From the NCBI GenBank assembly GCA_002437945.1, contig DJSB01000048.1:5114-69113 (forward strand): a stretch of DNA of 64,000 nt, written 5' to 3'. The DNA comes from Christensenella sp. UBA6345 (GTDB lineage Bacteria > Bacillota > Clostridia > Christensenellales > UBA1242). Shown one piece after another: positions 8,211 to 50,250 of this stretch; positions within the stretch are counted from its first letter, which is position 1, and every line of letters starts with the position of its first letter. Below the pieces are notes generated by a model. That model saw only the letters and a list, made by a program, of their open reading frames with translations. It was not told the origin of the DNA and did not search any database. The translations under genes were made by a program, and so were the position numbers.

Positions 8211-11200
8211 TTAAGCACCAGTTGATTCAATCTTAAATACAAATGTTGTATCTTTACTGATTTTCATAGATTTAATTTTATCTTCAATTGAAGATCCATC
8301 GTCTACAGTAATTTCAGTATATGAACCATCTTCTTCAAGAATGTACCATGTAACTTTAATACCGTCATTAGCATAGAATTGAATGAATTTACCTTCATAG
8401 TCATCTATAGTTGTATCAATATCAATTGTCATACTTAACTTTTTGTGTTCAGAATCTGAAGTATCAGTATAATCTCCAGTATAGTAACTAGAAGATCCAG
8501 CGTCATATGACATATAAGTTATAGTTACAAGTTTAATATATTTCATATATATTTTCTTGTCACATGTGCTTATTTTCTCATCAAAGTCATATAGTGTTGT
8601 AAATGACTCATCAGCATAATAGTTATCAAATCTATAACCCGATATAATTTCAACATCTTTTGTTGGTTTTGTAGCAGAACCACCCACTTCAACATATTGA
8701 GTATCGAAGATACCTGTAGATTCGTCTATTGTATACACAATATTAACTTTATAAGTAGCATAATAGTACACAGTAATATCACTAGTTATATTTATAGTAT
8801 CAATAGAAATATCTGTATTAGGATCATTATTATCAGTCAACCAATAAGATTTATCTGTTGGAATAAAGTTATTAGGAATATCTGAATCCTTTATTTTTCC
8901 ACCCTTATCTACTTTAATAGTCTTATTTACTGCTACACCATCTGACGCATATTTGCTATCAGCAATAAATGTTACATTATAAGTTCTAATATACTTCAAA
9001 TAAACATCTAGTTTAGTACTATTAATTTCTTGTTCAAAGTCATATGGAGTATTACTGTCACTATAGAAACCTGTAAATCTATATCCGTCAATATCTTTAA
9101 TAAATTCATTAGCATGAGTTTCTTTAAAAATACTACCGAATAATAATGAATTATCAGTTACATTTTCTATAATTGCCTGATTATTCATGTCAACATAGTG
9201 GTATGTTATTACAACATTATCAGGAATTAATTTTGCATTCAATGTAATATTTCCAGTAATAGGTATATTCTCATAATCAAATGCAGTTTCTTCGTCATCC
9301 AAATACCAATATTCTACATTTGTTGTGTAACCAACAGGTGCTGATTTAACAGTTGTTGGAACACTATCTACAGAAATGTACTGGTTGTATTTAACCTTAA
9401 TTGATGCAGTAGTACCATTGTTAAATGTTACTGTATATTCAATTGGTTCATAATATGCTTTTAAGGTCAAATCTTTTTCTACTGGTTCATTTGTATTATA
9501 TTGGTCGCCATATTCAGTCCAATACTTAAAGGTATATCCAGGTATATTAACCTTACTTAAAAGTTCAGTATATCCATTAGCACTAGCAACATTGCTACCA
9601 TGAACAACCTTTAATGTTTTGTTCAATGATAAATTCTCACCATAAATAAACTTAACATTGTATTCTCTTAACTTCCATTTAGCAGTAAGTGTCATATTTG
9701 AAGTTACTTTAGTATTATCAAAATCAAATTTAACATTTTCATCATCATAATACCAGTAGCCAAATTCATTCTCGGTCAATCTATGAGTTGGAATTGCTTT
9801 TGGTTTTACAACATATGAATATTCATCAATTATTTGATCATCAAAATCACTCGGTTTCTCATCTTTTTCATTATTTAAATCAAATTTAACCGTATATGCT
9901 CTTTGCCAATATGGATAAATAGTATATGTATCAGTAGTTTGCTCTACTTCTGTTTTTCTATCAATTTTTATAGTCTCTTTTGTTATAGAGAATATAGTTT
10001 TTGTAGTTACTCTAGTTGAATCATACCTTGAATGATTGTTATCAAAAGATTCTTTGTTATCTCTGTCTGCATAACCTGCTCTATCATAATTATCTTCACC
10101 TAGATATTTATCCAACATCTTTCGAGATTCCTTTACTTTTGCCTCATCATCATCAGACATTCCTTTTGTTGACTTATTTGCCCATTCTACCCAATAGTTC
10201 CAAGTAGATATTGAAACATGATACCAACCATCTGGATTAACTCTATAAATACAATTTTTATCATATGTAGTATCCATCAATTGTTGTTTTATATCTTCAC
10301 GATCATTAAATGTAAAATCGTCAATTGATCCATTGTTCTTTATAAATAGAGTACCAATGCTTGGATTAGTATTAGGATCATCAGGTTCATCATTTTTTAT
10401 ATAGTCCTTATTTTTATCTAAAACAATCATAACTTCTTTATCAACCCATTTAGCATATATCCTACATACTAAATCATTACCTGATTGTGTAAATGTAAAA
10501 TTGGATTCAGATATAACTTCACCAGATGAAATTTCTCTTTTCCCAGATTCATCTTTTGTCCATACTTTTAATGTTGAATTTTCAGTCTGCATTATAGGAA
10601 GTGTAATTTGATCCCCATCATAATATACTTTTCTGGTAGTTGGATATTTACCAGTCTTATCGTAAAATTCTATAATATAAGACTTAATATCACTATTAGC
10701 AGGGAATGAAGATGAAGGTTCTGCATTAAATGACATAACAACTGAAATATTAGTATTAATTGTACCCCAGAAATTACATGCTCCATATGCGATTTTTTGA
10801 GTTCCATCTTCAAGATTTTTCTTGCGATCACCATTCACATCTCCAGGAGTTTTTTGTTCACTATATGCATCATTTAATTTAAATGGTGTAACCCCATCAT
10901 CTGATAAAGTACCAGTATAATCGTATACATCAGCCCATATACGAGCACCACCCCACCATAGTCTCCAACCAGTGCAATATCTTCCAGAAGTAACAAAATA
11001 ATCATGAACGGCAAACTTATTATTATCTTCAACATTACAGTTATTATTTTCCATTGATGTATTTGAATCAGAATATGCAATATATGTCAAATTGTATGCA
11101 TTATCTTTAATTCCACTATCTCCTACTGTATGTGGTTCTTCTTCATACTTATATGTTGTATAATTTCCACCATTATTATTATCCACATTCAAAACATTGT

Positions 11201-14200
11201 AGAAATATAAAATGTTATATCCATCAGCTTTCGCTTGCTTGTTAGGAGCAGTTTTAGCCAAAATTCCAACATAACCATTGTGAGTGCAATTCTTTAATGA
11301 TCCTCTTTCAGACTCACCTGCAATACCACCAACTTTTACAGATGTTGTAAAGGATTCTGAAGCAATATATCCTTGATTGATACATCCATCAATTTGAGAA
11401 TCCGTTGCGTATCCAACTATACCGCCAGAATATCCAGTTGAAGCACTATCAGTTAAAATTTCACCATTTTTATGATTGGTATTGATATTGAAACTTGCTT
11501 CTTTAGCCTTGCCTGCTATACCACCAGCATAGATACCTATAACTCTAGCATAGTTTGTGCAATTATATACTGATGATAATATATTATCCTTATATCCAGT
11601 TCCATTAACTTCTCCTACTATTCCTCCACTAACATTCGCAGAATTATTACCATAATTACCATATGTTGTACAATTTACAATTAAATCGCTATCAGATTTA
11701 GCAACAATACCACCTACCGTACCCGCAGTTAAATCACCATTTCTTCTGCAGAATTTTCCGCCATCTTCTAGATTTTTACCAAAAATATTCTTTTGATAAT
11801 AGTAATTATTTGACAAACCAACTATACCACCAACAGTTGATGCATTACCACTATCAACATATGATTTAATAGCATAATTCTTTTCAGAATTAGAGCATTT
11901 AGAATTGGTAATAGCAAACTTCAATTGTCCATTTTCTAAACTACCTTCAGCTTGACCGATCAATCCACCAATTACTTCTGTTGTTCCAAATGAAATATTA
12001 GATTCATTAATACAATTATCAAATAATGTATTACGCATATAACCTAACAATCCACCAACTTTTTGAACATTATTAATGGTAATATCTTGATAATTTTCCA
12101 ACTCGCTCACTTTAGAATTGTATAAATTTTGAGCAATTGTTCCAAATGTGTCAAATCCATATGACGGATTAATATTTAGTTGACCACCATTAGATAAAAT
12201 TTTTATTCCACTAATTATAATTGATGTGCCACTATCCAAAAGTAGTCCAGATGACTTATTAATTGTAATTGAAGAATTATACTTTAATCTTATATCCTTG
12301 ATAATTAATTCTGAAGCACCAGAATTAATTACACCACCTAATAATGACATACTTAATGAACTGCTATCAACCGAATTGATTGTTACCGTATATTTTGCGC
12401 CATCAATACTTGTACGCCATGGATAAGCATTTCTTCCCAATGGAAGATGATCATCAACAGATATATTATTTCCGAATACAATATTTTTATCTGTACATTC
12501 TATACCAAAACGTTTTCTATTAAGTTCTGATAAGTATTTTAAGTTACCAGCATTATAAATAACATACTTACCATCTTTTGTTTCAGGTTCAGTACCTTTT
12601 GGGTTAATTGTATAATTAATATTGATATTCTTTCTATTACTAGTAACATTCTCCCAAATTAAATTCTGATCAAATACTTGATCATATGAAACATATGTCT
12701 TACCATCATAAGTAACTGAAGTATGAAGATTTGATAAATTAGATAAATAAGTTGTATTAATTAAAATTTGGCCATATCTATCTACATTTAAGTCTTCAGC
12801 AGTTACTTTCTTTGTGCCTTCCCTATAAATAACTGTATTTTTACCTTCTGTACTAGATGCAATATCAACACCTGTATAGATCTTATATTGTGAGCCTACT
12901 TCTAAATAGCCTACAAATCTACTTGTATCATTATTATTCTTATTTACGATATACTTATCATCAAATACACCCAACTTATTTTTATTAAGTAAATTGGTTA
13001 TATTACCAGAACCTTTTGCATAACCAATAATTCCACCTTGTTTTCTATTTTCATTAATAGCACCTACGGCACCTTCATTAATTACTTCACAAACATCACT
13101 ATCTTCAATATATCCAGCTATACCACCAACCGCTTCGCCTACTTCTTCTATACCACTAATATCTTTAGCAATAATAGTTCCACCATTAGTACTATTAACT
13201 ACAATAGCATCTCTTATATAGCCTGCAATTCCTCCAATATATTTATGACCTATTATAAGTGCTGTATTATCTACTATAGTAGGTGAATCGGCTTTATTAA
13301 GTTGTCCATCTATAGTTACTTGAGAATTTTCTTCGCCAATTGCACGACCAGCGATTCCACCAATACTATCCGATGTCGTTTCAATTATTCCATTGTTACT
13401 ACATTTTTGAATCTTTGTATTAGCCATATTGCTACTTAAGATTACTCCAACAACACCACCAACATTGTTTCTAGATGTAGTAATTTTGCCATTATTAATC
13501 AAATTACTAAATACATAATCACCTTTAGTATCATTATCTATAGTTCCAATAACGCCACCGCAACCCATTTTGTTATTTTCAAAATCTTTAGTTGCTATAG
13601 AACTTGTTATAGTAGCATTATTAGTTACATTTTCAATACTAGCATCTTTAGCATAACCTACTAGTCCACCAACATAGTAATTACCTAAAATACGAGAATT
13701 ATCACCAATTTGACCAATGTTACCTTGAGTCTTTTTATTAGAATCATTTATATCTCTTGATGTTATATGAGCAGTTTGATCCAAATACCCAAATAGTCCC
13801 ATATATGGTGTGTTAACTTCTTGGACTACATCACCTGTTTCATTATTTGAAACTTTGGTATATGCACCAGTAACTGTAATATTGGAGATTGTTTTACCAT
13901 TAAAGTTAAATGTGCCACTAAAATTATTAGTGCTTGAATAACCTATTGGAGTCCATAATTTTCCACCAAGATCAATATCATTCATTAACACAACAGTTTT
14001 ATTTTGAATTGAACTATCATTATTATTAACTAAAGTTGCTATGTAAGCCAATTCTTGTGGAGTTGTAACTTTAAACACATTACCTTCAGCAGCCAATTCT
14101 TTAGTGTCGTTTACCCAATATTGTAAAGCATTCTTTAATGTTGGGTAATCATTATTAGTTCCTTTTATACGAGTCCAAATAGTACCCCATGTAAAGTAAT

Positions 14201-17200
14201 CCAAGTCATGATTTTGTAAATATTCAGATGTAATTTTATTATTAAAATATCTACCCATAGAGTTGATATCTCTATAATTAACAGCATATAACGTTCTAGA
14301 TACTTCAGGTATTTCAGTAACAAACCCACCTATCAAATTAGTTTTTGAACTATCACTAGATTCTGCTCTAGTATAAACATACCCATTATTATAAGAATAT
14401 GTACCAATGTTACCAGCAATATACATTTGTGTAATATCAGTAGTATTTTGTGATGTAATATTACTACTAATATTACCAATATGAATAAATGCATTAGCAG
14501 AAGAATTATCTTTATCTAAAGAATATACATTTGAATTTACATATGCATATCTAATAACGATTTTTTCATTGTTTTTATCATTAATAGTCTTTATACCTAT
14601 TAAATCACCAACCAAGCCACTTGCTCTGTTACTTGCATAAACATCAGCATTCTCTGTACCAATATATTCAACAACAGAATAAGTTAGTTGTGATTGTGCT
14701 TGATTAGTAGAACCTACAATTGCTCTACCAGCAATACTACCTGCTACTGCGAATCCATTTTCGGAAACACTAATAAAGTTACTATCTTTGATAAATAAGT
14801 TTTTAGCGAATGATGTAGATTTAACTGTACCAAATATTCCGACATTTCTATTGCTTTCAACAACTGTAGCACCACTTATAGTTTTACCAGTACCTTGTAT
14901 TGAACCTCTAAATGGATATTCAATACCATGTACACTAGAAGAAGTATATGAGATTTCATCATTTTTATTAGATTCTGGCAATTCAATACCAAAACTTTCA
15001 TAACCAACTCCTACTGGTGTCCATAATTTACCGTTAAGTTTAATATCTTCTGCCAACCAGAACTCTTTACCTTCAGAGTTTACAACCATACGATTATAAT
15101 GAGTTCTTACACCGAAATTATATTTATAAGTACTTACTTTAGAAATTCTACTATCAGTATCTGTAGTCTCCGAATAATTAAAGTTAAAGTATTTAGAAGA
15201 ATTATTGTATTTTTCACTACCTGTAGCCAACTGATAATCAATCGCATTATTTTCTATATAACCTATGTTGGTCATCTTTATCAAGTCAGACATTGAAATT
15301 GTACTATTCTTATTGTCTTCAGCATTGTTTTTATCATTAACAATATAAATTTTATTATTATTTTTTACAATACCGGCTAATTCTGTAATCTCATTCTGGC
15401 TGGTTTTATTTGCCCAAATATAATCACTAGATATGTCACCATAATAATTGGTTCTGTATGAATCATTATTATCAGCCAATTCATATCTTAACATTGGGAT
15501 ACTATAATTCAACTTTTCTTCAGTAGAATTAATAACTACCCAGTCATTAATCATATCAAAGCCATCATGAGATAATGGATTAGCAGTGTACGAATTGTTT
15601 TTACTTGTTAGCGAGCCCAAATCAAATTTACCATTTTTCACAACAACTTTATCGTTACACTTAATACTTCCATTAGCATCTCTAATAACTTCATATGAAA
15701 TTGCCGAGCCATCATAATAAGTATAGGTTGTGTTATTACCATCTGAAACCACTTTATAAGATGAAATGTAATTATTACCACCATTATCACTATCAGAAGA
15801 TAATGAAACATTACTATCTTTAGATAGACTCCTAAACATGTATCCTTTATTATCAGAAACTAATTTTGATTTAGCAGTTATGTTTTGTTGATTTATTGAC
15901 ATTGAGTCAATAATACCTGTTTGTATGTTTTCATTAACAATATAAAATTCTGTAGAAGCGCCCGGATTCTTAATAGTAGTTTGATATACAATACCCTTGT
16001 TAATATTAATTAATTTAGAATTAATACTAGTATTAATAACCATACCACTATTATTATTTATTAGATAATTACCAGTATTATTATATGTTAAACCATATAA
16101 CAAACTATGAGAATCAATACTATCTATAGATAATGCACTAATTAAATCACTCTTATTAGGATTAATATAAATTTGTGCGTTAGTTAATTTAATACCACTT
16201 ATAGACTTTGTAGAGTCAACAATGTATGTCTCATTGGTAATATTTGTATTGATATTAGTGATATTAGAGTCTAAGATTTGTGGGTTTACTTTTGTACCTA
16301 ATTTTTGTAAATTTATGGCTATGCCATCAGCATGAGCAATATTGATACCTGCAATACTTTCTTCTGTCTTATTTAACCAAGTTAATTGTGGATAAGAGTA
16401 TTGATTAATAATTGTCCATACTTCTTTATTAATAAATTCATTGTTGAATTTTAAAGATTTGAATGGAATATTTTCCCCACTGAATAATAATTCTTCTGTG
16501 CTATATCCATCTCCATAATTATTACCATATGGTACAAAATCTTTATTATATATATTATTATAGAATAATAAGTTTTTAACATTAGATATATAAGCAAGTG
16601 GTAAATCTGTGGTAAATCCACCGATAAATCCGCCCTTATTCTCTCTATCAGCATAAGCAAGTTTATTTTCGACAGAATATAGGAATTTACCAATACTATA
16701 GTTATTAGATAATTCAACTTTCGAATTAATATTATCTTTATTGAAAGTAATATTACCTACTATTAAACCAGCAAAGTTACTACTTCCAGTAGAGAATATT
16801 TTACCTAAATCAATATCGGTAGTAGAGTATGATTTAATAACTTTAACTATATTGTTTTTTACACCATTCAATGTTTGATTAAGATCAATATTACCTACTA
16901 ATCCACCAACATAATTTATTTTACTACCAGTGCAAGTTCCTGCTATATTACCAGTTGCAACACTTTCAGAAACAATACCATTATATAGTTTACCAATCAA
17001 ACCACCAACGACATATTCAGTAGGTTTAGGGTTTCCTGTAATATCAATATTAGTTGTAATATTAACACTTGATACTACTTGATTAATCTCGTATGCATCA
17101 TTAACATTTTGTGCCATAAAGACTTTACCAAATGCTCCACCAATATTGTCATAAACAGAATTAATTGTTTCGCTATTATGGTTTATAGTATAATTACCAT

Positions 17201-31427: not shown

Positions 31428-31529
31428 GGTTTTCATCCTTAAAATTTAATATAGTTTTTGTTAATTTTTATCTTTTAATGCAATTATATTAAATATATAA
31501 TTATATATAATATAATTACTCCTAGCAAT

Positions 31530-31559: not shown

Positions 31560-32010
31560 ATATAATACTATAATAATCCTAAATATTGCGGATTTTTTAA
31601 ATAAAATTTTTTATCAATTTTAATATAAAAATACAACAAAATTGTTAACATTTTTATTTATATCAACATAAAAAATAGTCAAAAAACACTTAAATTTTTT
31701 AACAACAACAATACAAATTTTTTAAAAAAATAAGTAAAATTTAACATTAAAAATAGCATAAAAATACAACAAAAAATCAATAAAATTTTAATAAAAATAA
31801 TATGTGTATTCGTATTATTTTTAGTTAATAAAACACACTCTTTCAATGCGGGGAAAAAGAATAAAAACACAAATAAAAATCAGTAAAATAATGCTTAAAC
31901 AGCATATAATTTTACTTAAAAATAGTGTGATTTTTAACAGTATAATTTTTATTAAATATTTTTGATTTTAATTAAATATTTTAGTATTTAACAATATTAA
32001 TAGAAGCAAT

Positions 32011-32039
32011 AAAAAAGTGCGTAAAATACGCACTTTTTT
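32011..32039 (-). terminator. rho-independent terminator of giant gene 2 (bidirectional shape)
   Basis: AAAAA-AGTGCGT-AAAAT-ACGCACT-TTTTT: a perfect 7-8 bp GC-containing stem that begins 4 nt after the stop codon (32044-32046). T-runs follow on both strands. Confidence 0.8.
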
Positions 32040-32043
32040 ATTG

Positions 32044-44000: not shown

Positions 44001-47000
44001 GTACAGGTAAATTATTATTAATACCTTCACAAATAATCCAAGGTTGAGTGTAGTCTTGTTTAGTAGAACCATCTTCATTTTTAGTTGTATCATCAGTAGC
44101 AATATCTACTTTAAATGTTCTATTTTCACGATTATAGATACTTTGGTCTTTTAATGAAGCATAATTATATTGTAAATCACTAGATGTATAAACTGTTTTG
44201 TCTTCTACTTCTTGTTGTGTACCATCAACTATAGTTGTAATTATTTTTATAGTAACTTTTCCTTCGCTTACAATATCAAATAATTTATAACTATTACCAT
44301 TATTAACATTTTGGTCTATTATTGTGCCATAATTGTTAATTTGAGTATAAACATTTTCTAATTCAACGTTTTTACCATAAGTAGTATTAATTGAATTAGT
44401 AGTTTTTACTGTATATATTTTTGTTTTGTCAGTATTTCCGCCACCTTCACTAGGTGTATTACCTTCACCTGTGTTTCCGTCATCATTGTATACTTCTTTT
44501 TCTGTTAAAGTAGTTAAAGTCATAGTATCGTTGCCGATTATATGGCTAAAGTTGTCTACTACAGAGAAAGTAACTATAGTTTTTAAATATTTCTCATCTG
44601 GATTTTCTTCATCAACATATTCTTCAAATACATATTCAATTTCTACTTTAATAACTTCACAACCATTTTCTTTAATAAAGTTGTTAAGGTTAATTTGAGT
44701 ATCTGTTCCTGTATTTTCAATCCTTCTAGTAAAGTCACCATTCATAACGGTGTCACCTACTGTATTGGTTAAAAGTGTACCAATTACGTAGTAAGTTACT
44801 TTACCTTCATGATATCTTGAATAATCAGGGTTATTATCACTAGAGATATTCTTAAATCCAATAGAGTCTTGTGGAACATAATTAATCAAGGAGTAAGTAG
44901 GAACTGAATATCTAGCAATATTACCATACACATAAGAGTCTTTAATATTAAGTGCTTTAATACTTGTGCTTGGTGTGTTGTTAGAATTGTATGAAGTAAT
45001 GTCTCCTGATTTATTTTTAAGTACATTACCTACTAATCCACCTACATATACATCATTAGAAAGTTGAGTATATCCTGCATTAATATCTGCATTAAAGTAT
45101 GAATTACGAATATTAGATGATGATGTAAAAGTAGATATTTGGTTAATGAAAGAGTAAACAGCATTATTTACGCCAAGTTGTTTTTCAAATCCGTTAGAAT
45201 CAACTCCATTAACTTTTGAATTAATTTCTTCATTAATACCACGAGAATCTAAAGTACCAATTAAACCACCTATAGATTTAACGGCTTCGTTGCTTTCAAA
45301 CAATAGCATATTACCATAATAAGTAGAGTTATCAATACTTTGTCCATTGAAATATGCTCTTACGTAACTATATGCAATATTAACATCAATACCATAACCG
45401 ACCATACCACCTACATTAGTAGCACCTACTATAGTAGCAGTATCTATACCAGTCTGTCCTTGATTAGCAAATTCAACCAAAGTTGACATAATGTGAGATG
45501 CATTAGCAAAACCAAACACACCACCAATATTTTTATAGCCATACAATTTAACTGGTAACACTTCTATATTATCAGCAAGAGTACTATCAGAATAACCAAC
45601 TACACCACCGATATTAGCAGGTAATGCATTATTGTCATTTGTAATACTTGTAATATTGGCTACAACATTAAGATTGTACAAAGATTTAAACATTTCTGAA
45701 GCATACTGCATTGCAGTTATTCCAGTACCTAATTCCCTAGTGTCAGGAACTGGATCACTATTAGACAATGTTAAGTTGTAATTATCTTTTGAACCAAGAA
45801 TACCTTTTATATATACTACATTACCATTTCCATCAAATGAACGTGTAGGATATTTATACTCTGTATATGTACGGAATGTACCGCTTACACCACCTAAATT
45901 AATATTAGGAAGTTCTTGTGTATTTTCTAATAGAGAATCGAGTTTAGATGTCCCTTTAAATACAATAGCGACATTAGAATTATAACTGTTATTGGTAAAA
46001 TCTGAATTACTATCTTTTCCAGTGATAATACCAGTTATTTTTGATTTACTATCATATGAATTACTTTCGCCATCAGCAACTTGAATAATATCTTCATCAA
46101 TTGATAATACAGAAACTGTTTTACCAGTTAAGCCACCAACGTTAACATTGCTAATATCAGAAACAACATTAATTGAACCAGTAACAAAATTATTGTTAAT
46201 TTTACCCTTATTAATACCGGCTATTGAACCTATACTAATCATGTCATTAAAGTTGTTACTTGAAGTTAAAACAAAATCATACTGAATATCATTTAATATT
46301 AAGTTTTCAATTTCTGCAGTTTCGGTTAATTGGCTAAATAATCCATAACCATATTCTGGATTTTTGTATTGGCTAGTTAAATTATCACAGTTAACATTCT
46401 CTTCAATAGTTAAATTTTGAATAGAATGTTGTTGACTATAATATATACCACCAATATTGTAAGTAAATTCACCATTAATACCACCAGCAAATGTGCCAAA
46501 TGGTCTTATCTTTTCTCCCGCCATAGTAAATGATTGAGTTAACATATAATAATATTTATTGTTACCACTTGCTATGTCTTCTGCTATACCCAAGAATCCT
46601 TGTGGGTCGCTTATTTCAAATGGATACTCTTTAGAACCATCTGCTACACGTATAGAAATTTCTAGGTATTTAGATGGAGAATCTTTATTTGTGCTTCTAT
46701 CGTAATAGTAACTATCTTCTGCACTAATACGTATATATGTACGTCCAGCACGTAAACTTGGTGCAATAACAATTTGATTACCGATAATACGATTATCACT
46801 GTCTACACCTTTAATTATTCTTGCTACACCATCATCTTCGATTTCTGCAATCAAAGTTTTGTTGTATGCATCTTGTGGTAAAACATTAAATGTGATAGTT
46901 TTACCAACATTATTTTCATTAATCAATCTAGTATCAAAATACAATCCGCTTTCGCCTACACTAGGTATAATCTTTTCTACGGCTTGTGCTTTTTTAATAG

Positions 47001-50000
47001 TCAATTGTGTTTTTGTAGTAACAATTGGCTTTGAATATTGTTTTAATTGAGCATAAATATCTATCACAATGTTTCTAGAGAAAATAGCATCAATTATTGT
47101 CTTTGAATCTATTGCTGTATCTGTCAAACTAGAATATCTATTGGCTTTTTCTTCAATAGTAGTTAATCTACCACCAGTAGCATATTTATAGATTGCTTGT
47201 ACAGTAAAGTTATTTCTGATATTTGGGTCGGCAATTAATGTAAGTATATCACCTACAGTAATGTCACAATCGTCAATTTCCTGTCCATTAGCATCAACGC
47301 CTCTTAAGGAGTACAATACTTTCTTGTCATCAAAACTATATGTGATATCTACATTTTCGTTAAGAGTTGCTGTAACTGGATAAGTAATAACACTATAATT
47401 AACTTTACTTGCTTCTTCTTTTAAAGAACCTAAAGAGTTAGAAACATATACTGTTCTATTTTCAGGAGTTAAAGAAATACTTGTTATAGGTTCGATAATT
47501 ACTAAATAGAACACTTTAGTAAATTCAACAGCATCGCCATTATTGTTATAGCCAGAAATTTTAATTTCTACTGGTATACCATTATCACTAGGAGTTTTTA
47601 CCTTTTTAGTTACGATATATGGCATATCACTACCTTGGTCATATTCAACATTGAAATATTCCCTATTCTGGTTAATTATAATATTGGAATTATAGTTAAC
47701 TTTAGAGATATGTGGATTACCTTCAGCATCGTTAAGTACAACATAGTTGTATACATTAATACCTACACGACTATCAATAGCCAAAGTTAATTTCTCGAAT
47801 GTGGTATATCTAATAATGTCTTTTATACCATCTTCTTCAGTAGGTTGATAATTTTCATCATAGAATTCAAATTGTTCGGTATATCCGATATAGTAATTAT
47901 GTTTTTCTACGAAGTAAATATCCGAACTTACTTCTTTTTCATTATTAATTTCGATATGTACCTTATCAGCAGTTTCTGGTCCATATGTGATAGGTACAAA
48001 TATATCAATAGTAACCCTTTTTACAATATCGTTAGTTGTAGAAATTTCAAGAACTACACGTGCTTGTTCGGCTTGCAAATTAGGTTCAAGGACTAATCTG
48101 TTATTACGTCCTATTATTTTACCTTCTTTATATACGATACTGAAATATTTATTATTCATAGCGTCCATAGTAGAAGGTTGTTCGTTAACACTTAATACTT
48201 TTATGCTACTAATCAATTCTTTTAAATCAGCAGGTTGATTATCAATAGTAGCAAGGACTATTTCTGTATCATCGGTAGTTTGACCTGCATCGTCATATAG
48301 TGCTTGACGATTAGATGATTCAACATTGTTGGTTAATGCAGTATCGTTATTTTTATTAATTGCTTTACCTGTAACTGCATTAATCTTAATCTCTGAATTA
48401 GTAGAAGGAATACGAATGTCGGTAACACCCAATTTCATTTCCATTGCTATAGATTTAGAAATACTATATGTTACATAATTTTCAGAAGAAACACCTGATG
48501 GTGCTAAATTATAATAATATGTAAGATTGATTGTTGGTGGATATTCTTGTGCAAGAATATCTGTAATAAGTTCATCAGTATAAGAATGTTTAATAAATAT
48601 CTTTGTACCAGAATCTAATACTGATCCATCATATACTGGAGTACCATTAGCCAAAGTTAAAGTTAATCCACTATTACCATCTACAGAAGGCGCATTAGAT
48701 ATAGACAAACTAACTTTATAGTTATTGTCTGGGTTTGGGGCTAAACTAATAGATAATGGAGTACCCAAAGAATTATTGCCATATGCGTTATAAACAACAA
48801 GTTTATATCCTTCGGTAAATACGTTGTTACCATTGCTATCATAAGCGTTAAGTTCGGTAGCAAAATCTTTAACTATGATTCTTACTTTGATAGTCATAGT
48901 AAACATACCTTCGTAGCCTACTCTATCAACATAAAGTTCAAAAATTTCAGTACCTGTCTTTATTTGAGTAATATCATATTTTTTGTATGGATATTCTTGC
49001 TTGATACCGCTATAACTATAACGGTCTTGGTCTTCAACCTTACTGGTTGCTTCAAAGATAGATTTACTATCTGTTTCTTTATTGTCTTTGTTGCTTGTAA
49101 TAGAATATTTTTGGTCTATGGTATAATCACTAGACAACTTTACTGTAAGTTCACGTGAATATACATATGGATTGGTAGGAATATTATGTCCAAGAATAAT
49201 ATCATAATATCCTAGATTATTTTTTGTAAGTGCAAAAGTACCATCTTCTGCAGTAGTCTCTAATACAAATTCGGATTCATCTACTATTTCTAATACCGGT
49301 ACAGTTATTGTTTGAGTCCTAATACTAGAGTCATATTTAGATACGCCATAAACATTGATATATTTTTCTCCATTGTTCATAGGATAACTATCAACTTTTC
49401 TTGATGTCAAAATGTTATCATTGATTCTAGCATATACAGTTTCGGTAATCCCTGTACCATCACTTACACTAGACGAATCTGAACTATCGGCAATATAATA
49501 TGTCATTTCTTTTTGGTTGGTATCTTCAGGCAAATATGTCATATATTTGCTTAAATCTACAAACCCACCATATTTAACTGCAATTGGAGATGAAGTAAAT
49601 GAAGCACCTTTAACTGGTACATAAACCACGATGTTAATATCTTCGGTCTTATTACCTTCATTGGTAGTTATGGTTAACTTACCTCTACCAGCCTTGATGG
49701 CGGATACCTTATATGTAGCACCATCTTTTGATGATGTAGTACCCGAAACAAGTTTGACATTAACTATATCGTCTACACCATTAAATGCATACTGGGTAAT
49801 TGTAATACCTCCACTTATGGATTTACTTGTTCCAGCGACTTTAACATTAATAGTTGTAGAAGAAGGATAATCAGTATTCTCTTCATCGTTATTAAGATAA
49901 AGGACTATATCTTGTGTAGATACAGACAAAGCAAAATTCTTGTATGGGTCACCACAACCATACAACATTAATACTGAACTTAAGATAATTAATAAAAATG

Positions 50001-50019
50001 TGCCTAACTTTTTAACCAT
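32044..50019 (-). CDS. giant surface lipoprotein 2 (about 5,991 aa): Ig-like arrays, 6 GLUG-repeat modules, Tyr-rich C-terminal tail
   Basis: An 18.0-kb uninterrupted frame. The ORF track starts at 50037 (MSWRYTM...), but GGAG (50030-50027) lies inside those codons, 7 nt upstream of the 7th-codon ATG (50019, context ACCATGG). Signal peptide MVKKLGTFLLIILSSVLMLYG|C. Consensus promoter at 50251-50279 and terminator at 32011-32039. Colinear homology with giant protein 1. Confidence 0.9.
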   Translation of the reverse strand: MVKKLGTFLLIILSSVLMLYGCGDPYKNFALSVSTQDIVLYLNNDEENTDYPSSTTINVKVAGTSKSISGGITITQYAFNGVDDIVNVKLVSGTTSSKDGATYKVSAIKAGRGKLTITTNEGNKTEDINIVVYVPVKGASFTSSPIAVKYGGFVDLSKYMTYLPEDTNQKEMTYYIADSSDSSSVSDGTGITETVYARINDNILTSRKVDSYPMNNGEKYINVYGVSKYDSSIRTQTITVPVLEIVDESEFVLETTAEDGTFALTKNNLGYYDIILGHNIPTNPYVYSRELTVKLSSDYTIDQKYSITSNKDNKETDSKSIFEATSKVEDQDRYSYSGIKQEYPYKKYDITQIKTGTEIFELYVDRVGYEGMFTMTIKVRIIVKDFATELNAYDSNGNNVFTEGYKLVVYNAYGNNSLGTPLSISLAPNPDNNYKVSLSISNAPSVDGNSGLTLTLANGTPVYDGSVLDSGTKIFIKHSYTDELITDILAQEYPPTINLTYYYNLAPSGVSSENYVTYSISKSIAMEMKLGVTDIRIPSTNSEIKINAVTGKAINKNNDTALTNNVESSNRQALYDDAGQTTDDTEIVLATIDNQPADLKELISSIKVLSVNEQPSTMDAMNNKYFSIVYKEGKIIGRNNRLVLEPNLQAEQARVVLEISTTNDIVKRVTIDIFVPITYGPETADKVHIEINNEKEVSSDIYFVEKHNYYIGYTEQFEFYDENYQPTEEDGIKDIIRYTTFEKLTLAIDSRVGINVYNYVVLNDAEGNPHISKVNYNSNIIINQNREYFNVEYDQGSDMPYIVTKKVKTPSDNGIPVEIKISGYNNNGDAVEFTKVFYLVIIEPITSISLTPENRTVYVSNSLGSLKEEASKVNYSVITYPVTATLNENVDITYSFDDKKVLYSLRGVDANGQEIDDCDITVGDILTLIADPNIRNNFTVQAIYKYATGGRLTTIEEKANRYSSLTDTAIDSKTIIDAIFSRNIVIDIYAQLKQYSKPIVTTKTQLTIKKAQAVEKIIPSVGESGLYFDTRLINENNVGKTITFNVLPQDAYNKTLIAEIEDDGVARIIKGVDSDNRIIGNQIVIAPSLRAGRTYIRISAEDSYYYDRSTNKDSPSKYLEISIRVADGSKEYPFEISDPQGFLGIAEDIASGNNKYYYMLTQSFTMAGEKIRPFGTFAGGINGEFTYNIGGIYYSQQHSIQNLTIEENVNCDNLTSQYKNPEYGYGLFSQLTETAEIENLILNDIQYDFVLTSSNNFNDMISIGSIAGINKGKINNNFVTGSINVVSDISNVNVGGLTGKTVSVLSIDEDIIQVADGESNSYDSKSKITGIITGKDSNSDFTNNSYNSNVAIVFKGTSKLDSLLENTQELPNINLGGVSGTFRTYTEYKYPTRSFDGNGNVVYIKGILGSKDNYNLTLSNSDPVPDTRELGTGITAMQYASEMFKSLYNLNVVANITSITNDNNALPANIGGVVGYSDSTLADNIEVLPVKLYGYKNIGGVFGFANASHIMSTLVEFANQGQTGIDTATIVGATNVGGMVGYGIDVNIAYSYVRAYFNGQSIDNSTYYGNMLLFESNEAVKSIGGLIGTLDSRGINEEINSKVNGVDSNGFEKQLGVNNAVYSFINQISTFTSSSNIRNSYFNADINAGYTQLSNDVYVGGLVGNVLKNKSGDITSYNSNNTPSTSIKALNIKDSYVYGNIARYSVPTYSLINYVPQDSIGFKNISSDNNPDYSRYHEGKVTYYVIGTLLTNTVGDTVMNGDFTRRIENTGTDTQINLNNFIKENGCEVIKVEIEYVFEEYVDEENPDEKYLKTIVTFSVVDNFSHIIGNDTMTLTTLTEKEVYNDDGNTGEGNTPSEGGGNTDKTKIYTVKTTNSINTTYGKNVELENVYTQINNYGTIIDQNVNNGNSYKLFDIVSEGKVTIKIITTIVDGTQQEVEDKTVYTSSDLQYNYASLKDQSIYNRENRTFKVDIATDDTTKNEDGSTKQDYTQPWIICEGINNNLPVLFDVDSHTKLLFKILPTNITINILDEKYKALAFNNLSFVKDGENLVLFYNELTTNTNRVYGNLNKYRLVTSYTDSDLYNMSVDDAGLTTIDSYIYPLVPISFDLDIADISKYGLSAIYDKGINITSSNRSVLEIVNSNTIRTVGTGTTVLKVSSKLDSSITKSINILVVSGISDFNLYQSKNLSVNENKVISYNEKPSDESAISHIIDTTYQYWTDTINEDSADLIDFNNTYVKNTSVGFILEVSDEGEGQALVNNVQLEKGVTYLYNSFGEFNFRGNYNGIFEFSITPFIKSEDAGFGTTLTETASSGKKINNCIVLEKLKKFYKFNIIPRAESITIDKAFANLDPVSTLDLTITTITSSFTKIGESYEVDEVVYARVIDTITNRSNGSFTLDMTGTGTNNSLLNIELLEEKIEETDNVLKVKLIQKIRISFNAEKYRNRTGGVTYNLNDVNYRIEFYPYSNTDLLSTFDIKIIPRNVNEVKMSYYASAETMEGGFYPQEEKSEYIVPARSGLLKLELTPNFSNADYITLTVDDDMGPMVAFAQQLAVVSGNETNYITGYQTIIEQPEYLPGFKGLKLKNQSMIIDGSQIYYNNWYYVLVTLNSNVQENQPITFRATSYKTYTNPVTGRKEETEIRSDIITLKAQPLPSVSITVDGKSEGIVAKGSTVELEVNAVNFEGDIVLSASTANNDAKNVEVYKDVTTGKWYLNINVGATAGDTVIVNATASKTINNILENVTSSIKLYIVEYLITGIRVEGTTYIDGRYEYEALSGTTHPLKVILDTVKDSKNTYANTLIGAFENEASGITIPYGSGDYINNWWRLNSNNEYESMFRNTTYTNFQFASLTMSDFNNTHYFAIKTKKVSNTDVISYRLKYYYDNKGVPSLYTNINYGYDIYELTFDFVLVIKDNSTYDHPNPIETVEEFMALGGLNTDGTNNEIGAVTEGHYILVNDIVLDNYYPFSANFSSLDGNGHYITIKGFNTDKYKAGNVTNIGLFETVSENTVIKNITIDISDMLIKSSQARAMLRQDPEASTPDIDLMGVTSFTFGILAGENNGSITNAKIISTKSVSTNGSSRIDGNNLLIASTTGYIDGSLVDARVGGLVGINNGTISNSYVGLNAVNYDDIGTSEERHSNVKEKYTTLTTYPFTLIGGKNISAFVNTNNGIVANCYALGVGVINTGVIFEGTNTAGFVVDNSESGNIFNSMVEGIRVENYRASQEVSLEGKGFIGGFVYQNSGKISNAYSNIYITTNSGGSGGFVYNNDGSITNAYSTAKNSNNSWAHGAFTGIDDDSEYNNNGTYLSCFYLVYEGEVANELEPAIGLSGKASTAESANNNNPFRDTGSFNGFNFAAGQDVNNVWLIDNDNFNYGPRLVSASSVDTFSHRVLVDTVVDADTNQARYDYEYDNNEYYGSDINPLLVNNATEFVTFIINNSRRVNLGNNTSAYVFGITSESNSQSSSVSANMPHYVRIINNLDFSQIILNNLVVDGKHINDIVFAGRLDGNGMTISGLRLVDQNQSTIHENYGLFNQIGLTSDQKNELTKNSATNTTVKTSIMNINIEITGVDSAQAVKVGTLAGSIYDTALINIKLSGESGVYVRGQNIVGGLAGLIINTDNSNNIVDITTDNVSVVATFSSSTGNVTDVTTLDTDAILKNGDNNYIYYNSYALDKTNTVANLRKMSYAGSIAGIINGNNRSNMPSTLLSNTDTTYRVIDDNNSATENIRKSQTKPSESKIYRLTVQNGGYIAADHAGGLFGLVDENTHIKSSKYLIGEILGDGEVSDPAFVQEIRGYNYAGGIVGENYGMLEQVYVEYISEIQKEVDSNFNTGKKATGEKDNLFGDTIATGIGGIAGYSGVMPILTGDKLTYYEINSGTFVGSIIVDSYSRVNVINARAKSAGGIVGVSAGANFFGHVYTTASVYASSYIGGLIGLYNKGITNDNLYTQDGLLQLDYAFALNQWTSDVKSIVSNNLWQSLSGKLSDQSFKVTFPEIGNTLKTGATDMDITYSSSDTIKAYAGSLIGYVNKQQDGTNYVSGEYDDNGVKFEGKGAVTLGRRTQLIGLSESAFKDYNKPSNVKFNFSTVISTTFNDANILKNNIYYVGYDSHDKKAIVNYDDTNDSNHYYTPSFDGQTLETTVDNYTPYYDAKLRNASTYVGDQLKLSTILGKNSNKSLFNMYIWDTLTLDKVDPASGSKIWRINEDFPEYIIGIFSNFVTITTDGEYDEKIIKQTSTRNQFFLIDGANNNTINISSQLVKPFEGTMIGIQKDNKNSTLKFKVNTFDSSIFKSLKNASFSNIDFEITIEEDLEIDTVDYYGFIANIVDTCSFNNSTIKIINKGDNTISHKINLMSMGLAFGRSVDTSINNVVLDTTDLAGNIILNNKTTGSISSNIAKLNIGGFVGESIRTTGNGINIVANTGNNKKIVVSDTINTEINIGSLFGSTSGSTIENINVEQLNKQDINNIIVVYSNASANTSASINYGGMIGNMNNSQLSTVYVGGNIEFGSTTVSENYSANIGGAVGRAINSNLQDINVNEYVYNEETTKDNNKVVETNRSIISTTTSMKVNIKNIGDKANTYTIGGIVGSGINTIIGGNRNSKLVSSNALPIKVTYNSDTVNESSLSNIIVGGVVGQLTNNSDSSGLFKVYNIGAINIDNNKKSNKYIGGIVGRAMGGKYEAIYNVGEIQLKESDPSSYNIGGIMGTSETNSSQNSLILTKFINFADINIIAMKTGAKEYVDAKPSADQNRLVGGVAGKMEGDGSNYEGGYTLARLLYTTDKTVQLGVKNQDNKGINGIAYANTQARNVYFVLEFMPYSNFTNNSAQSNGAVVIANNDTTTQSGGIPYAQLVPVLNKKLSKYFVCDSGTLDVQFATKSKSDGSKYSTNLPTVFKNDNNSEVEEIDINKVIYDLIETNGNDNNESNNNEYGSVGVGSKLNPIYFNTAKSNINTYILNPNYFYIFNNDVINEKTIKIDSDGSFNGLITTNNRNNLPTVKLDNLSTNYGFISNIKVLFDYTNSNNKYAIIENNYGNIVNCITYNIINTTSVTFSDSVSAFVYNNHGNIVQSGSTILIVANSVNFASGGNNQLSGFVNNNFADGFIKDCYSTMSIINSSSDLVFLRNANIISGFVVDNQGVIETSYYAGKINANVGSVFASNNDGTIRKCYYDGEAMSIKNDKVDYLDSKDVKTSNDGAGIRFVKTQTMLESSDSVRTFFKYALATTFVPSSWKYDVNSNEDEFYNFGYATINSADKVITLLNFDGSDYSPILSQLSGVEVEKRYFPIIHAGQLNALSSYQDNSSFKGFILLTNIDMSKINFNGEINNTTKNYNSYFALKKNFNGLNHIIRNLSITSANQNASVGLFAIIESASTVSNLKLYDFVLKFDTNNVQTGALAGQNNGIINNVIVDNVTIETKNTNNVGGIVGVNNKDINYSIVRDSTITGSEDVGGMVGKMKNGNIIGDGIFYNINDVTINGQRHVGGLVGNSLDNSKIEKIRVGNQTKITAKYISDTNRLLYDSIANGETKVNSNTLDSVKDKLLNADTAIGGIVGLLSGGTMQNCTINGVELTGDNGVGGIAGIAEANTIISITDRNYNWSSSAKSVKINGRFVLGGVVGLNKGTIQGYGSIRSYISANIGENTNNFNTAVGGVAGINTGAIRNVEVNGSTINGDRLFGGIAGLSTQGTIYNCYVASTTFNYLSNDDIDQDTGYMGDSLRMGISNANHGWTNNDFNSYFGLGGRGASNILECSEIDNAVAIEYGGIETKLGSNTKIAGKNAFKPLFGFITGAKYGTNVTSTYSSSSSQFNNLIDEYRIYRLRITSSTVYVAFKRDTNTVAREIKKGVRKLKLYGNTTSQALLYGDVNYYKYDSSIYNEINGFDSDLNEYTNDAASKNIDALQYLGELSKWDSSYAKKVEMAKDDYYYYGLYKYYKHDKYGDYYNALKMTAYPGMSIDFGNSYFDAKEYKSDTQNYDAGGTFGKFPATYWSGTIFKI
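32800..34190 (-). repeat. giant protein 2, GLUG-repeat module 6 (approximate boundaries)
   Basis: Head: YFPIIHAGQLNALSSYQDNSSFKGFILLTNIDMSKINF...NFNGLNHIIRNLSITS. Repeats: NVGGIVGVNNKDINYSIV, DVGGMVGKMKNGNI, HVGGLVGNSLDN, AIGGIVGLLSGGTMQNC, GVGGIAGIAEAN, VLGGVVGLNKGTIQG, AVGGVAGINTGAIRNV, LFGGIAGLSTQGTIYNCYV. Confidence 0.55.
34200..35215 (-). repeat. giant protein 2, module 5, variant (S/A)(G/A)FV-type repeats (approximate boundaries)
   Basis: Head: LNPIYFNTAKSNINTYILNPNYFYIFNNDVINEKTIKIDSDGSFNGLITTNN. Repeats: VSAFVYNNHGNIVQS, LSGFVNNNFADGFIKDCYS, ISGFVVDNQGVIETSYY. Confidence 0.4.
35220..37380 (-). repeat. giant protein 2, GLUG-repeat module 4 (approximate boundaries)
   Basis: Head (degenerate): QLVKPFEGTMIGIQKDNKNSTLKFKV. 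Repeats: NIGGFVGESIRT, NYGGMIGNMNNSQLSTVYV, NIGGAVGRAINSNLQD, TIGGIVGSGINT, IVGGVVGQLTNN, YIGGIVGRAMGGKYEAIYN, NIGGIMGTSE, LVGGVAGKMEG. Confidence 0.5.
37385..39760 (-). repeat. giant protein 2, GLUG-repeat module 3 (approximate boundaries)
   Basis: Head: NPLLVNNATEFVTFII...FAGRLDGNGMTISGLRLV (compare GDLDGNGMTINELRVV in giant 1 module C). Repeats: IVGGLAGLIINTD, HAGGLFGLVDEN, YAGGIVGENYGMLEQVYV, GIGGIAGYSG, SAGGIVGVSAG, YIGGLIGLYNKG. Tail: KIWRINEDFPEYIIG. Confidence 0.55.
39875..41255 (-). repeat. giant protein 2, module 2, mixed GG.VG / GFV-type repeats (approximate boundaries)
   Basis: Head: NPIETVEEFMALGG...HYILVNDIVLDNYYPFSANFSSLDGNGHYITIKGFN. Repeats: RVGGLVGINNGTISNSYV, ISAFVNTNNGIVANCYA, TAGFVVDNSESGNIFNSMV, FIGGFVYQNSGKISNAYS, GSGGFVYNNDGSITNAYS. 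Tail: NVWLIDNDNFNYGPRLVS. Confidence 0.55.
41260..43985 (-). other. giant protein 2, central array of Ig-like / beta-sandwich domains (approximate)
   Basis: Examples: INITSSNRSVLEIVNSNTIRTVGTGTTVLKVSSKLDSSITKSINILVV (Big_2-like) and ITVDGKSEGIVAKGSTVELEVNAVNFEG. Colinear with 22470-25440 of giant gene 1. Confidence 0.45.
43990..46630 (-). repeat. giant protein 2, GLUG-repeat module 1 (approximate boundaries)
   Basis: Head: YPFEISDPQGFLGIAEDIASGNNKYYYMLTQSFTMAGEKIRPFGTFAGGINGEF. Repeats: SIGSIAGINKGKINNNFV, NIGGVVGYSDSTLADN, NIGGVFGFANASHI, NVGGMVGYGIDVNIAYSYV, SIGGLIGTLDS, YVGGLVGNVLKN. Tail: PWIICEGINNNLPVLFDVD (about 43990-44020). Confidence 0.55.
46650..49950 (-). other. giant protein 2, N-terminal array of Ig-like (Big_2-type) domains (approximate)
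   Basis: Example: GRGKLTITTNEGNKTEDINIVVYVPVKGASFTSSPIAVKYGGFVDLSKYMTYLPEDTNQKEMTYY. This parallels ITITVMTKEGNLSKEVNVRVTRPITSLSFNQETIPVLKG... of giant 1. No GLUG motifs in this stretch. Confidence 0.5.
49954..50019 (-). other. lipoprotein signal peptide of giant protein 2 (lipobox L-Y-G-C, Cys codon 49956-49954)
   Basis: MVKK (n-region), LGTFLLIILSSVLML (h-region), YG|C. Tyr at position -2 is slightly atypical. Confidence 0.65.
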
Positions 50020-50250
50020 GGTATATCTCCAACTCATTAGTAGTTATGCTGTCTTAATCATACTTGTAAGTTGTAATCAAATAACAACTTATTAATCCAA
50101 TCTAAACTAAAGCAATAAAGTGTCTATAGTAGTATGATTTGTAGGTGTATAAAGCAAACCAAAACTAATAGATTGTATTATTTAGTATAATCAAAATGCG
50201 CGGGAATATTTAATATATTATATATATAAATATTATCTTCCCTAAACACA

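Follow-up and report, generated by a model that had tools for sequence, protein, structure and literature searches.

The window analysed here, 64,000 nucleotides (nt) of contig DJSB01000048.1 from Christensenella sp. UBA6345 (assembly GCA_002437945.1), is dominated by two giant genes for predicted lipoproteins, here called A and B. Both genes lie head-to-tail on the minus strand and are free of stop codons over 7741 codons (8211..31436) and 5997 codons (32044..50037), respectively. Together they occupy 64.4% of the window, in agreement with an earlier note on this DNA that had described two giant minus-strand open reading frames (ORFs) filling 64% of it. At the local composition of 30% G+C, a stop is expected with a frequency of 0.088 per codon; the chance of such stop-free runs, calculated from the local base composition, is about 1e-308 for A and about 1e-239 for B, and the longest ORF in the other frames of the giant-gene region is 133 amino acids (aa). 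A Mollicutes-type genetic code (code 4) is unnecessary, since the ORFs are already open in translation table 11. Translation most probably starts at the second ATG of each ORF (M4 of A and M7 of B), because these ATGs are in an ACCATGG context 6 to 8 nt after AAGGA (A) or GGAGA (B), because the orthologues begin at the same residues (MGYIRKK... for A and MVKK... for B), and, in the case of B, because a public gene call on the identical sequence is 5991 aa long. From these ATGs, each preceded by its own Shine-Dalgarno (SD) sequence, gene A (8211..31427, minus strand) would encode 7738 aa (854.5 kDa, pI 4.9) and gene B (32044..50019, minus strand) 5991 aa (657 kDa, pI 4.7), and the lengths of 7,738 and 5,991 codons reported earlier match these internal starts. 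Both proteins are acidic and have a high content of N, S and T, and they are among the largest predicted bacterial lipoproteins (about 855 and 657 kDa).

Long ORFs of this kind could be suspected of being assembly artefacts or decaying pseudogenes. At the same place next to an identical RpoB, three other metagenome assemblies carry a gene of 7731, 7772 or 7735 aa, and over its whole length a same-species allele of 7723 aa (P0021) can be aligned with A at 88% identity. ERZ808247 NODE_78 is probably the source of the window, to which it is 100% identical over a 20-kb stretch. When metagenome contigs were scanned, the family alignment gave no match and a single protein gave one near-identical contig. 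Tandem Repeats Finder and a repeat search found no tandem repeats and no long or near-identical direct or inverted DNA repeats; the only recurring DNA in the giant genes is a diverged stretch of 30-35 nt that encodes the GLUG motif. Given the stop-free runs, the identical or near-identical full-length genes in independent assemblies, the absence of DNA repeats from these searches, the full-length orthologues of conserved length kept by many species and the dN/dS values below 1 (see below), the suspicion is refuted for practical purposes, even though contigs of metagenome-assembled genomes (MAGs) often break at or beside the giant genes and one MAG has a fragmentary A; the earlier view that the ORFs are not assembly noise therefore stands.

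The contig breaks were seen in L008, L011, L017, L026, L040 and others, whose ends lie within 80-550 bp of rpoB on its upstream side or immediately after spoIIID. The giant genes thus appear to be systematic assembly break points, and they are probably under-represented in MAG-derived protein catalogues. In the fragmentary case (L006; GCA_002296745.1, DBJJ01000045.1, 1-2880), the sequence of rpoBC agrees with the window at 100% identity, and the 2.5 kb upstream of it, which correspond to the C-terminal end of A, align only in fragments at 88-95% identity and are called as small genes. Either the allele is degraded or short reads of co-existing strains were merged into a chimeric consensus.

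Both products begin with a lipoprotein signal peptide. That of A (31353..31427, minus strand) has the form MGYIRKK-LIVFTLILISTVAIFTG-C with the lipobox MGYIRKKLIVFTLILISTVAIFTG/C, and that of B (49954..50019, minus strand) has the form MVKK-LGTFLLIILSSVLMLYG-C with the lipobox MVKKLGTFLLIILSSVLMLYG/C. The design is the same in both: RKK or KK is followed by a hydrophobic core of 15-17 residues and then by FTG/C (A) or LYG/C (B), which we take to fit the PROSITE PS51257-type rule. All 13 full-length members of the family have a lipobox, and its Cys and the Gly before it are invariant in the family alignment, so that the lipobox signal peptides noted earlier are not only present in A and B but conserved family-wide. 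The PrsA-like protein encoded nearby has a lipobox of the same kind (VFAG/C), and its orthologues are classical Firmicutes lipoproteins. The N-terminal hydrophobic segment is the only one in A and in B. Neither protein contains HExxH or a C-terminal LPxTG; the sole LPxTG-like match is internal (A aa 5486) and no hydrophobic segment is found at the C-terminus, which does not make a sortase anchor. The earlier statement that the window holds no catalytic, sortase or secretion features was borne out. The organism is presumably monoderm (with a single membrane), judging from its taxonomy and from the Firmicutes-type neighbours of the giant genes.

The evidence on structure covers about 2,350 of the 13,729 residues (about 17%), namely A 4-1150 and A 2900-4100. 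The AlphaFold2 (AF2) model of A 4-1150, made from 3 sequences, is all-beta with strands of 5-10 residues (pLDDT 49, and 60-80 over the first 460 residues). A Foldseek search with this model gave 208 chains of the Protein Data Bank (PDB) at E<=1e-3, all of them arrays of Ig-like domains, including the S-layer proteins SbsB and SbsC, SGBP-B, titin, cadherins and the base of GhpA. Furthermore, positions 105-176 of the N-terminal family profile match proteins with 12-30 Pfam Big_2 domains. However, no tile of A or B gave a direct match to Big_2 (PF02368) at E<=1; the domains are thus Ig-like in fold but not demonstrably members of Big_2. We place the Ig-like beta-sandwich array, which would be proximal to the membrane, at A aa about 29-1030 (28347..31352, minus strand). 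Inside this putative stalk, A aa 866-910 (window 28707-28838) is a 44-aa insertion of the form CITCG-x23-CPVCG (CxxC-x23-CxxC), which is zinc-ribbon-like with a weak match to Pfam Zn_ribbon_8. The insertion occurs only in the alleles of this species (A, P0021 and P0001) and is absent from six A-type orthologues (P0022-P0026 and P0028).

The AF2 model of A 2900-4100 (m72ef912f8c27), made from an alignment of 7 sequences (pLDDT 58, pTM 0.65), shows confident blocks of short-strand solenoid. The best Foldseek matches are the beta-helices of the IgA1 proteases of Streptococcus pneumoniae and Gemella (E 7e-4, probability 1.0), with further matches to Ag43, the HK620 and P22 tailspikes, the binding region of the L. 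reuteri serine-rich repeat protein (SRRP) and PfbA; the global TM-scores are low since the query, the single modelled beta-helix tile, is multi-domain. As modelled, the GLUG region in A 2900-4100 has a right-handed parallel beta-helix fold. Structure prediction on tiles, from which the earlier note had expected beta-helix or beta-solenoid modules separated by Ig arrays, supports right-handed beta-helices for the GLUG region and a resemblance to multi-Ig arrays for the N-terminal 1,100 aa or so.

Further beta-helix modules are marked by N-cap motifs of the form Y-x-L-x-x-D-I...W-x-P-I-G, by clusters of the GLUG motif and by Pfam. The Pfam family GLUG (PF07581) matched eight tiles, six from A and two from B, and in four of them the score exceeded the cut-off of 20.5 bits (A tiles 6, 8 and 9 at 26-27 bits and B tile 10 at 34.4 bits). 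In A (all on the minus strand), the first predicted module is at aa about 1030-1760 (26157..28349; N-cap at aa 1045, a GLUG cluster and a sub-cut-off Pfam match), where the fold is assigned by analogy. It is followed by the modules at aa about 2990-3400 and 3510-3990 (19467..22469), which are supported by AF2 and Foldseek and are collinear with B, and by putative modules at aa about 4300-4940 (16617..18539; N-cap at aa 4322, Pfam GLUG in tile 6 and motif clusters), aa about 5440-6140 (13017..15119; N-cap at aa 5459, Pfam GLUG in tile 8) and aa about 6460-6710 (11307..12059; Pfam GLUG in tile 9 and a motif cluster). A third copy of the DNA repeat D4, which encodes the N-cap, is at 13941-13993 (A aa about 5814). 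Near the C-terminus of A, Flg_new (Listeria-Bacteroides repeat, PF09479) matches with 56.7 bits in 4 stretches, above the gathering score, and the best-scoring of the four repeats is at aa 7181-7253 (9678..9896); in the A orthologue of L066 the score is 132.6 bits, also in 4 stretches. In B (minus strand), predicted modules are at aa about 1140-1670 (45028..46620; motif cluster and N-cap), aa about 2930-3950 (38188..41250; collinear with A 2498-3982 and among the best-conserved parts of B-type proteins), aa about 4400-4760 (35758..36840; motif cluster) and aa about 5300-5700 (32938..34140; Pfam GLUG at 34 bits in 4 stretches and a motif cluster). B ends with a domain of about 300 aa that is specific to the B type (32047..32970); it is Tyr-rich with an invariant W...F near its end, is present in all B-type proteins and had no PDB relative in a profile search.

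Beyond these matches, the searches gave little. No match to NCBIfam was found for A or B, and PDB sequence searches with both halves of A gave no relative. The Pfam result was only partly as the earlier note had anticipated: GLUG is scattered over both proteins and Flg_new occurs four times in A, but Big_2 is missing and B has no Pfam match to Flg_new. Likewise, the claim that A and B consist only of Ig-like arrays and GLUG-type modules holds for the roughly 2,350 residues tested, and the remainder is without a Pfam match. The modules had also been called reiterated, which was not the case beyond the short GLUG motif. Self-comparison of A and of B by blastp gave no off-diagonal match at E<1e-4, jackhmmer with Ig domain 2 against the 13 giants of the family recovered only the positional orthologue in each protein, and an iterated GLUG hidden Markov model recovered the motif alone.

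An exhaustive search with a profile of the N-terminal 890 positions of the family against 1.84 billion representative proteins gave 264 matches at E<=1e-3, of which only about 50 were collinear from residue 1, the others being Big_2 arrays. The full-length A-type proteins are 7417-7804 aa long (8 representatives), with shorter A-type proteins of 6590 and 6664 aa, and the full-length B-type proteins are 5893-6038 aa long (3 representatives and B itself). The positions of the GLUG modules are superimposable among members that share just 35-53% identity. All of the members that we encountered are publicly named 'hypothetical protein'. Judged from these searches, the giant family is rare and restricted to one clade. 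A and B share about 25% identity and are collinear over about the first 4,000 residues, where A residues 9-465, 890-1154 and 2498-3982 have their counterparts in B in the same order; the distant orthologues of L050, L055 and L063 match the same core. A and B are anciently diverged paralogues, and the difference between them appears to lie in the C-terminal extensions.

We scanned for RpoB in one genome per species (the species set of the Genome Taxonomy Database) and obtained 45 loci with the full 10-kb upstream flank. In 25 of these, a single open frame of more than 2,700 codons fills the upstream flank entirely and stops a few hundred bases short of rpoB; such a giant ORF is present at 22 of the 30 loci with RpoB identity of at least 73% and at 3 of the 15 loci at about 60%. 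All but one of the 25 flanking giant ORFs are BLAST-similar to A or B, often only in patches. The tandem of B followed by A was found in one further species (L097); in the remaining loci, the 10-kb flank ends inside the A-type gene. Synteny with rpoB and pairing in related genomes, which the earlier note had proposed to look for, were both found, the pair in L097. The genomes nearest by RpoB are MAGs from the guts of humans (Hadza, Nepal), goats, deer, yak and chickens that bear the labels Clostridia bacterium, uncultured Christensenella sp. or Christensenellales; the RpoB of Candidatus Onthoplasma, which NCBI taxonomy places in the Christensenellaceae, is 57% identical. The family is thus kept at conserved size and position in many uncultured Christensenellales-like species of human, ruminant, deer and chicken guts.

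The family evolves rapidly. In L066, RpoB is 98% identical to that of the window and the A orthologue, collinear over 3,111 residues, is 34% identical; in species at 93% RpoB identity, the A orthologues are 29-31% identical. Nei-Gojobori estimates for the window and L066 are dN 0.017 and dS 0.63 for rpoB, and dN 0.61 with saturated dS for gene A. Between strains with identical RpoB, the dS of rpoB is 0-0.027, and gene A is a mosaic in which some blocks have a dS of 0.03-0.15. A central-distal block at aa about 6100-7300 (window about 9.7-12.1 kb) has a dS of 0.6 to >1 between strains; within it, 9684..12121 (minus strand) is hypervariable among same-species strains, with no blastn match and saturated synonymous divergence. 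The last 450 codons or so of A are again nearly identical between strains, and dN/dS within the species is 0.2-0.7 throughout gene A. Such synonymous divergence, far above the genomic background, points to old divergent alleles imported by homologous recombination, beyond fast point substitution. Over the family, identity falls from 50-60% at the N-terminus and at aa 2500-4000 to 14-30% at the C-terminus, and the best-conserved region is A aa about 2500-4000 (47-61% identity). The gradient is consistent with anchoring at the N-terminus and a C-terminal part that is distal and exposed. Among the loci compared, the giant locus is the fastest-evolving and most recombining, and this together with its conserved size and position suggests that the giant proteins are likely the main interface with the surroundings (host, phage or partner microbes). 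The variable block of A is a candidate strain marker, and possibly a phage receptor or antigen.

A and B appear to be two separate transcription units, a conclusion well supported by their own predicted promoters and terminators and by the retention of these signals in L097. The putative promoter of B (50279-50251, minus strand) is a perfect TTGACA-17-TATAAT (site score 12/12), located after the spoIIID terminator and some 225 nt ahead of the B start codon. The AT-rich spacer between B and A (31437..32043, minus strand) contains the terminator hairpin of B, a 44-nt direct repeat and two exact copies of TTGTTGTATTTT. The hairpin (about 32007-32043, minus strand) has 17 bp and a U-tract (-20.1 kcal/mol, z = -8.1) and begins at most 3 nt after the stop codon; it was missed in the terminator scan and confirmed by folding. 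The putative promoter of A (31559-31530, minus strand), TTGACT-18-TATAAT with the -35 box TTGACTAAT, has a site score of 11/12. After A, an intrinsic terminator (8164-8145, minus strand; -19.6 kcal/mol over 8135-8175) separates the gene from a distinct, TG-extended rpoB promoter (8004-7976, minus strand) that follows it. In the equivalent spacer of L097, the terminator is kept with a different stem sequence, and the -35 box TTGACTAAT, the -10 box and the SD region are also kept; the L097 proteins flanking this conserved spacer are only 36-48% identical to those of the window. The two transcription units proposed earlier are upheld, and each gene was found to have a conserved promoter, a ribosome-binding site and a strong terminator.

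The exact copies of TTGTTGTATTTT are at 31628-31639 and 31761-31772 (minus strand), 133 nt apart within the 44-nt direct repeat. The same sequence occurs once in the equivalent spacer of L097 (5236-5247), and no further exact copy was found in the two sequences; it is a candidate site for a regulator that would bind upstream of the A promoter, with weak statistical support. In the 64-kb window of 30% G+C DNA, all A/T homopolymers are shorter than 9 nt and all G/C homopolymers shorter than 6 nt, which makes phase variation of the giant genes by simple repeats unlikely. Rfam gave no match in the leaders or anywhere else in the window, and a tRNA scan of the window found nothing. In four same-species assemblies, the identity with the window ends exactly at 50324, 5 nt after the spoIIID stop codon, where an IS3-family element is present (L089 10263-10381, L091 6207-6826, L092 and L093) with the terminal sequence TGAAGTGAACCCCGTAGGGGTCACTCA and an rve-type transposase on the opposite strand. 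Such an insertion just upstream of the B promoter could affect the expression of B in those strains.

The genes around the pair are rpoB and rpoC downstream, SpoIIID, acyl carrier protein, M23 peptidase, polysaccharide deacetylase, an MprF-like protein, the PrsA-like lipoprotein, Mfd and Pth upstream. PrsA, SpoIIID, the M23 peptidase and the polysaccharide deacetylase were considered as dedicated partners of the giants and rejected, because they form an ordinary Firmicutes neighbourhood of pth-mfd-prsA and spoIIQ-like/spoIIID; we presume them to be unrelated to the giants on the basis of known gene orders. Two further ORFs are present in all strain contigs: one of 379 aa (52287-53426, minus strand) with no Pfam match and one of 149 aa (51760-52209, minus strand) with an N-terminal hydrophobic segment, which lies between the 379-aa ORF and the M23 peptidase gene. 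In the window (7669-8210), rplJ-rplL do not precede rpoB. In the two relatives checked that lack a giant ORF, L020 and L023, the genes at this place are pgk-tpi, plus Sel1 or ABC/FtsX genes. In another lineage, a protein of 2900 aa (P0036) combines two Ribosomal_L12 C-terminal domains with BspA-type leucine-rich repeats and 12 Big_2 domains; probably the gene of a large surface protein was fused to rplL in the gene call, a hint that the rplL-rpoB neighbourhood hosts genes for large surface proteins in other lineages too.

The explanation that we consider fairly probable is that A and B are lipid-anchored fibrillar adhesins under diversifying selection; here we infer lipidation, orientation, extension, adhesive function and ligand binding. 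The two genes would be transcribed separately from sigma-70-type promoters, and each giant would be exported through Sec, receive its lipid on the conserved Cys and be processed by signal peptidase II, leaving the mature protein tethered by its N-terminus to the outer face of the cytoplasmic membrane. An array of unique Ig-like domains of about 1,000 aa would form the membrane-proximal stalk, followed outward by right-handed parallel beta-helix (GLUG) modules in alternation with more all-beta spacers. The distal, exposed part would be the C-terminal third to half, with more beta-helix modules and the Listeria-Bacteroides repeats in A and the conserved 300-aa domain at the end of B. From standard dimensions, about 4 nm per Ig domain and 0.48 nm per turn of beta-helix, we estimate that a fully extended fibre would be of the order of 200-300 nm. 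The adhesin would bind to glycans or surfaces of the host, of diet particles or of other microbes, and its distal part would be diversified by phage, immunity or ligand variation, with the alleles reshuffled by homologous recombination. Besides adhesion, the proteins may serve as a coat as well.

Several points weigh against this explanation. No adhesive domain of known ligand was found in A or B, more than 80% of the residues are outside the modelled tiles and without a Pfam match, and the AF2 models are modest (mean pLDDT 58 and 49) and come from shallow alignments. The lipidation, surface exposure and expression of A and B are predictions from sequence, and lgt and lspA are not in the window. 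Furthermore, dN/dS is below 1 throughout and positive selection was not demonstrated; the pattern could be explained by relaxed constraint together with recombination. Adhesin stalks typically vary by repeat number, and the strict length and module order of the giants, unusual for such stalks, may reflect a structural role.

In an alternative explanation, densely packed giants are the main outer layer of the cell, substituting for an S-layer or capsule and protecting the membrane and the thin wall against phage, bile, complement or antibodies, with the variability serving antigenic and phage escape rather than adaptation to a ligand. The strict conservation of length, module order and genomic position over many species, the strong consensus promoters of both genes, the acidic and N/S/T-rich composition, the mosaic alleles, as in surface antigens, and the matches of the N-terminal model to SbsB and SbsC among other Ig arrays would all suit such a coat. 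However, Pfam and NCBIfam scans found no SLH, CWB2 or other lattice or wall-binding domain in A or B, a result on which we also rejected an S-layer protein in the strict sense; beta-helix and Flg_new modules are typical of binding proteins; and 8 of the 30 close species have no giant ORF at the rpoB position. We therefore regard a coat as the chief function as unlikely, although it is compatible with the data, overlaps partly with adhesion and does not exclude it.

Another explanation, which we consider doubtful, is that A and B are not independent adhesins but the obligate components of one fixed-length, non-repetitive, lipid-anchored heteromeric surface fibre of a few hundred nm. This fibre would be the defining envelope structure of an uncultured clade of gut Christensenellales and would attach the cell to one particular partner, for example host mucus or a syntroph such as a methanogen. 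If this is true, the conserved pair with its conserved lengths (about 7.6k and 5.9k aa), the collinearity over the N-terminal 4,000 residues and the unique, position-specific domains reflect a defined molecular ruler or assembly and no generic stalk.

The beta-helix modules could also be polysaccharide lyases, hydrolases or proteases, in which case A and B would be cell-bound multi-enzymes that degrade glycans or mucin while tethered to the surface. The fold matches do include tailspike endoglycosidases, PL6 alginate lyase, pectin methylesterase, fucoidan lyase and IgA1 protease. However, the matches to enzymes are weak (E 0.04 to >1), and the significant ones are to the non-catalytic beta-helix region of IgA1 protease; moreover, the 13.7k residues contain no HExxH and no enzyme family of Pfam or NCBIfam, and neither half of A has a PDB sequence relative. 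An enzymatic role is thus improbable. Still less do we favour a polymorphic contact-dependent toxin, a giant filament delivering a variable C-terminal toxin like CdiA, Rhs or WapA, since the giant size, the beta-helical modules and the strong variability toward the C-terminus that recall such toxins are outweighed by the internal position of the most variable strain block (aa about 6100-7300) with the last 450 aa or so conserved between strains, by the lack of an adjacent immunity gene (A is directly followed by a terminator and rpoB, and B by gene A), by the absence of toxin, pretoxin, Rhs and LXG domains from the Pfam and NCBIfam results and by an N-terminal lipid anchor that differs from the known topology.

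Taken as lipid-anchored fibrillar adhesins, A and B have several relatives in design among known systems, and the earlier assertion that they are not a described system was too strong, as analogues are found in Apilactobacillus kunkeei, among the giants of gut Clostridia and in gut methanogens. The closest described analogue is the Giant1-5 set of A. kunkeei, which are consecutive genes for extracellular proteins of 3,000-8,000 aa that take up several percent of a small Bacillota genome, have predicted beta-solenoids similar to the SRRP binding regions and diversify by short intragenic recombination (PMC12863079). The tandem giant genes, the beta-solenoids, the elongated all-beta architecture and the intragenic recombination are shared with A and B. 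However, the A. kunkeei Giants have a Sec/SPI signal, an N-terminal solenoid, long imperfect internal repeats and a C-terminal DUF5776/SH3b-like wall attachment, whereas A and B have an N-terminal SPII lipobox and several solenoids along the chain, and neither internal repeats nor a wall-binding domain such as DUF5776 were detected in them. In addition, no sequence homology to the Giants was detectable, and thus A and B are analogues and not members of that group.

Fibrillar adhesins are likewise monomeric and very long, combine an Ig-like stalk with binding modules, evolve fast and are often encoded by the largest gene of the genome. Their usual polarity is an N-terminal adhesive domain and a C-terminal LPxTG, SLH or transmembrane anchor, with stalks of near-identical tandem repeats, unlike A and B with their predicted N-terminal lipid anchor, distal C-terminal end and sequence-unique domains at conserved positions. 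Ebh and Embp are built from repeats. The same is true of the Mobiluncus adhesin of 7651 aa and 51 domains (PMC10619420). Monzon et al. (2021) surveyed the fibrillar adhesins of Gram-positive bacteria, and neither the main text nor the anchor models listed in the methods mention lipoprotein or lipobox anchoring (PMC8286594); adhesin-discovery pipelines may therefore not look for lipobox-anchored giants. Compared with the definition of that survey, A and B lack any catalogued adhesive or anchor Pfam domain and hence have no formal membership; the Ig-like array that would be the stalk is supported by a model and a fold search, yet its domains are not sequence repeats. A and B may work like fibrillar adhesins functionally without belonging to them formally.

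The likeness to the streptococcal and Gemella IgA1 proteases (PDB 6XJB, 6XJA and 7UVK) consists of the beta-helix and the shared GLUG family. It is one of scaffold only, because A and B have no M26 domain and no G5 domain and the two halves of A gave no PDB sequence match, and an IgA1 protease or other M26 metalloprotease was rejected on this basis together with the lack of HExxH and of Pfam or NCBIfam matches to such enzymes. Adhesin-like proteins of gut methanogens contain multiple right-handed beta-helices (up to seven per protein) together with Big/Ig-like domains (PMC11532034). They share with A and B a design of several beta-helices and Ig-like domains in gut-adapted microbes, but they are archaeal, smaller and anchored in other ways, and showed no homology to A or B in the searches made. 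Finally, West-Roberts et al. described giant proteins of gut Clostridia with Listeria-Bacteroides repeats, which were proposed to bind glycoproteins on host or prey surfaces (bioRxiv 10.1101/2023.11.21.568195). These proteins resemble A and B in the class Clostridia, the mammalian gut, the giant size of a predicted surface protein and the Flg_new repeats, but they have 10,000-30,000 aa and are dominated by repeats, and the A/B family, its lipobox, its tandem pairing and its synteny with rpoB are not described there.

By itself, the locus of A and B neither overturns nor opens a major question; the earlier note was largely right on the anatomy, gave a function that was inferred and overstated the novelty. 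In comparison with the systems above, A and B are unusual giant fibrillar surface proteins of a known sort and no new kind of system. What is unusual is the apparent N-terminal lipid as sole anchor, the non-repetitive architecture, the conservation of domain positions and length, the paralogous pair and the synteny with rpoB. Thus, giant surface proteins need no recent tandem repeats, and an N-terminal lipid can be their only recognisable anchor.

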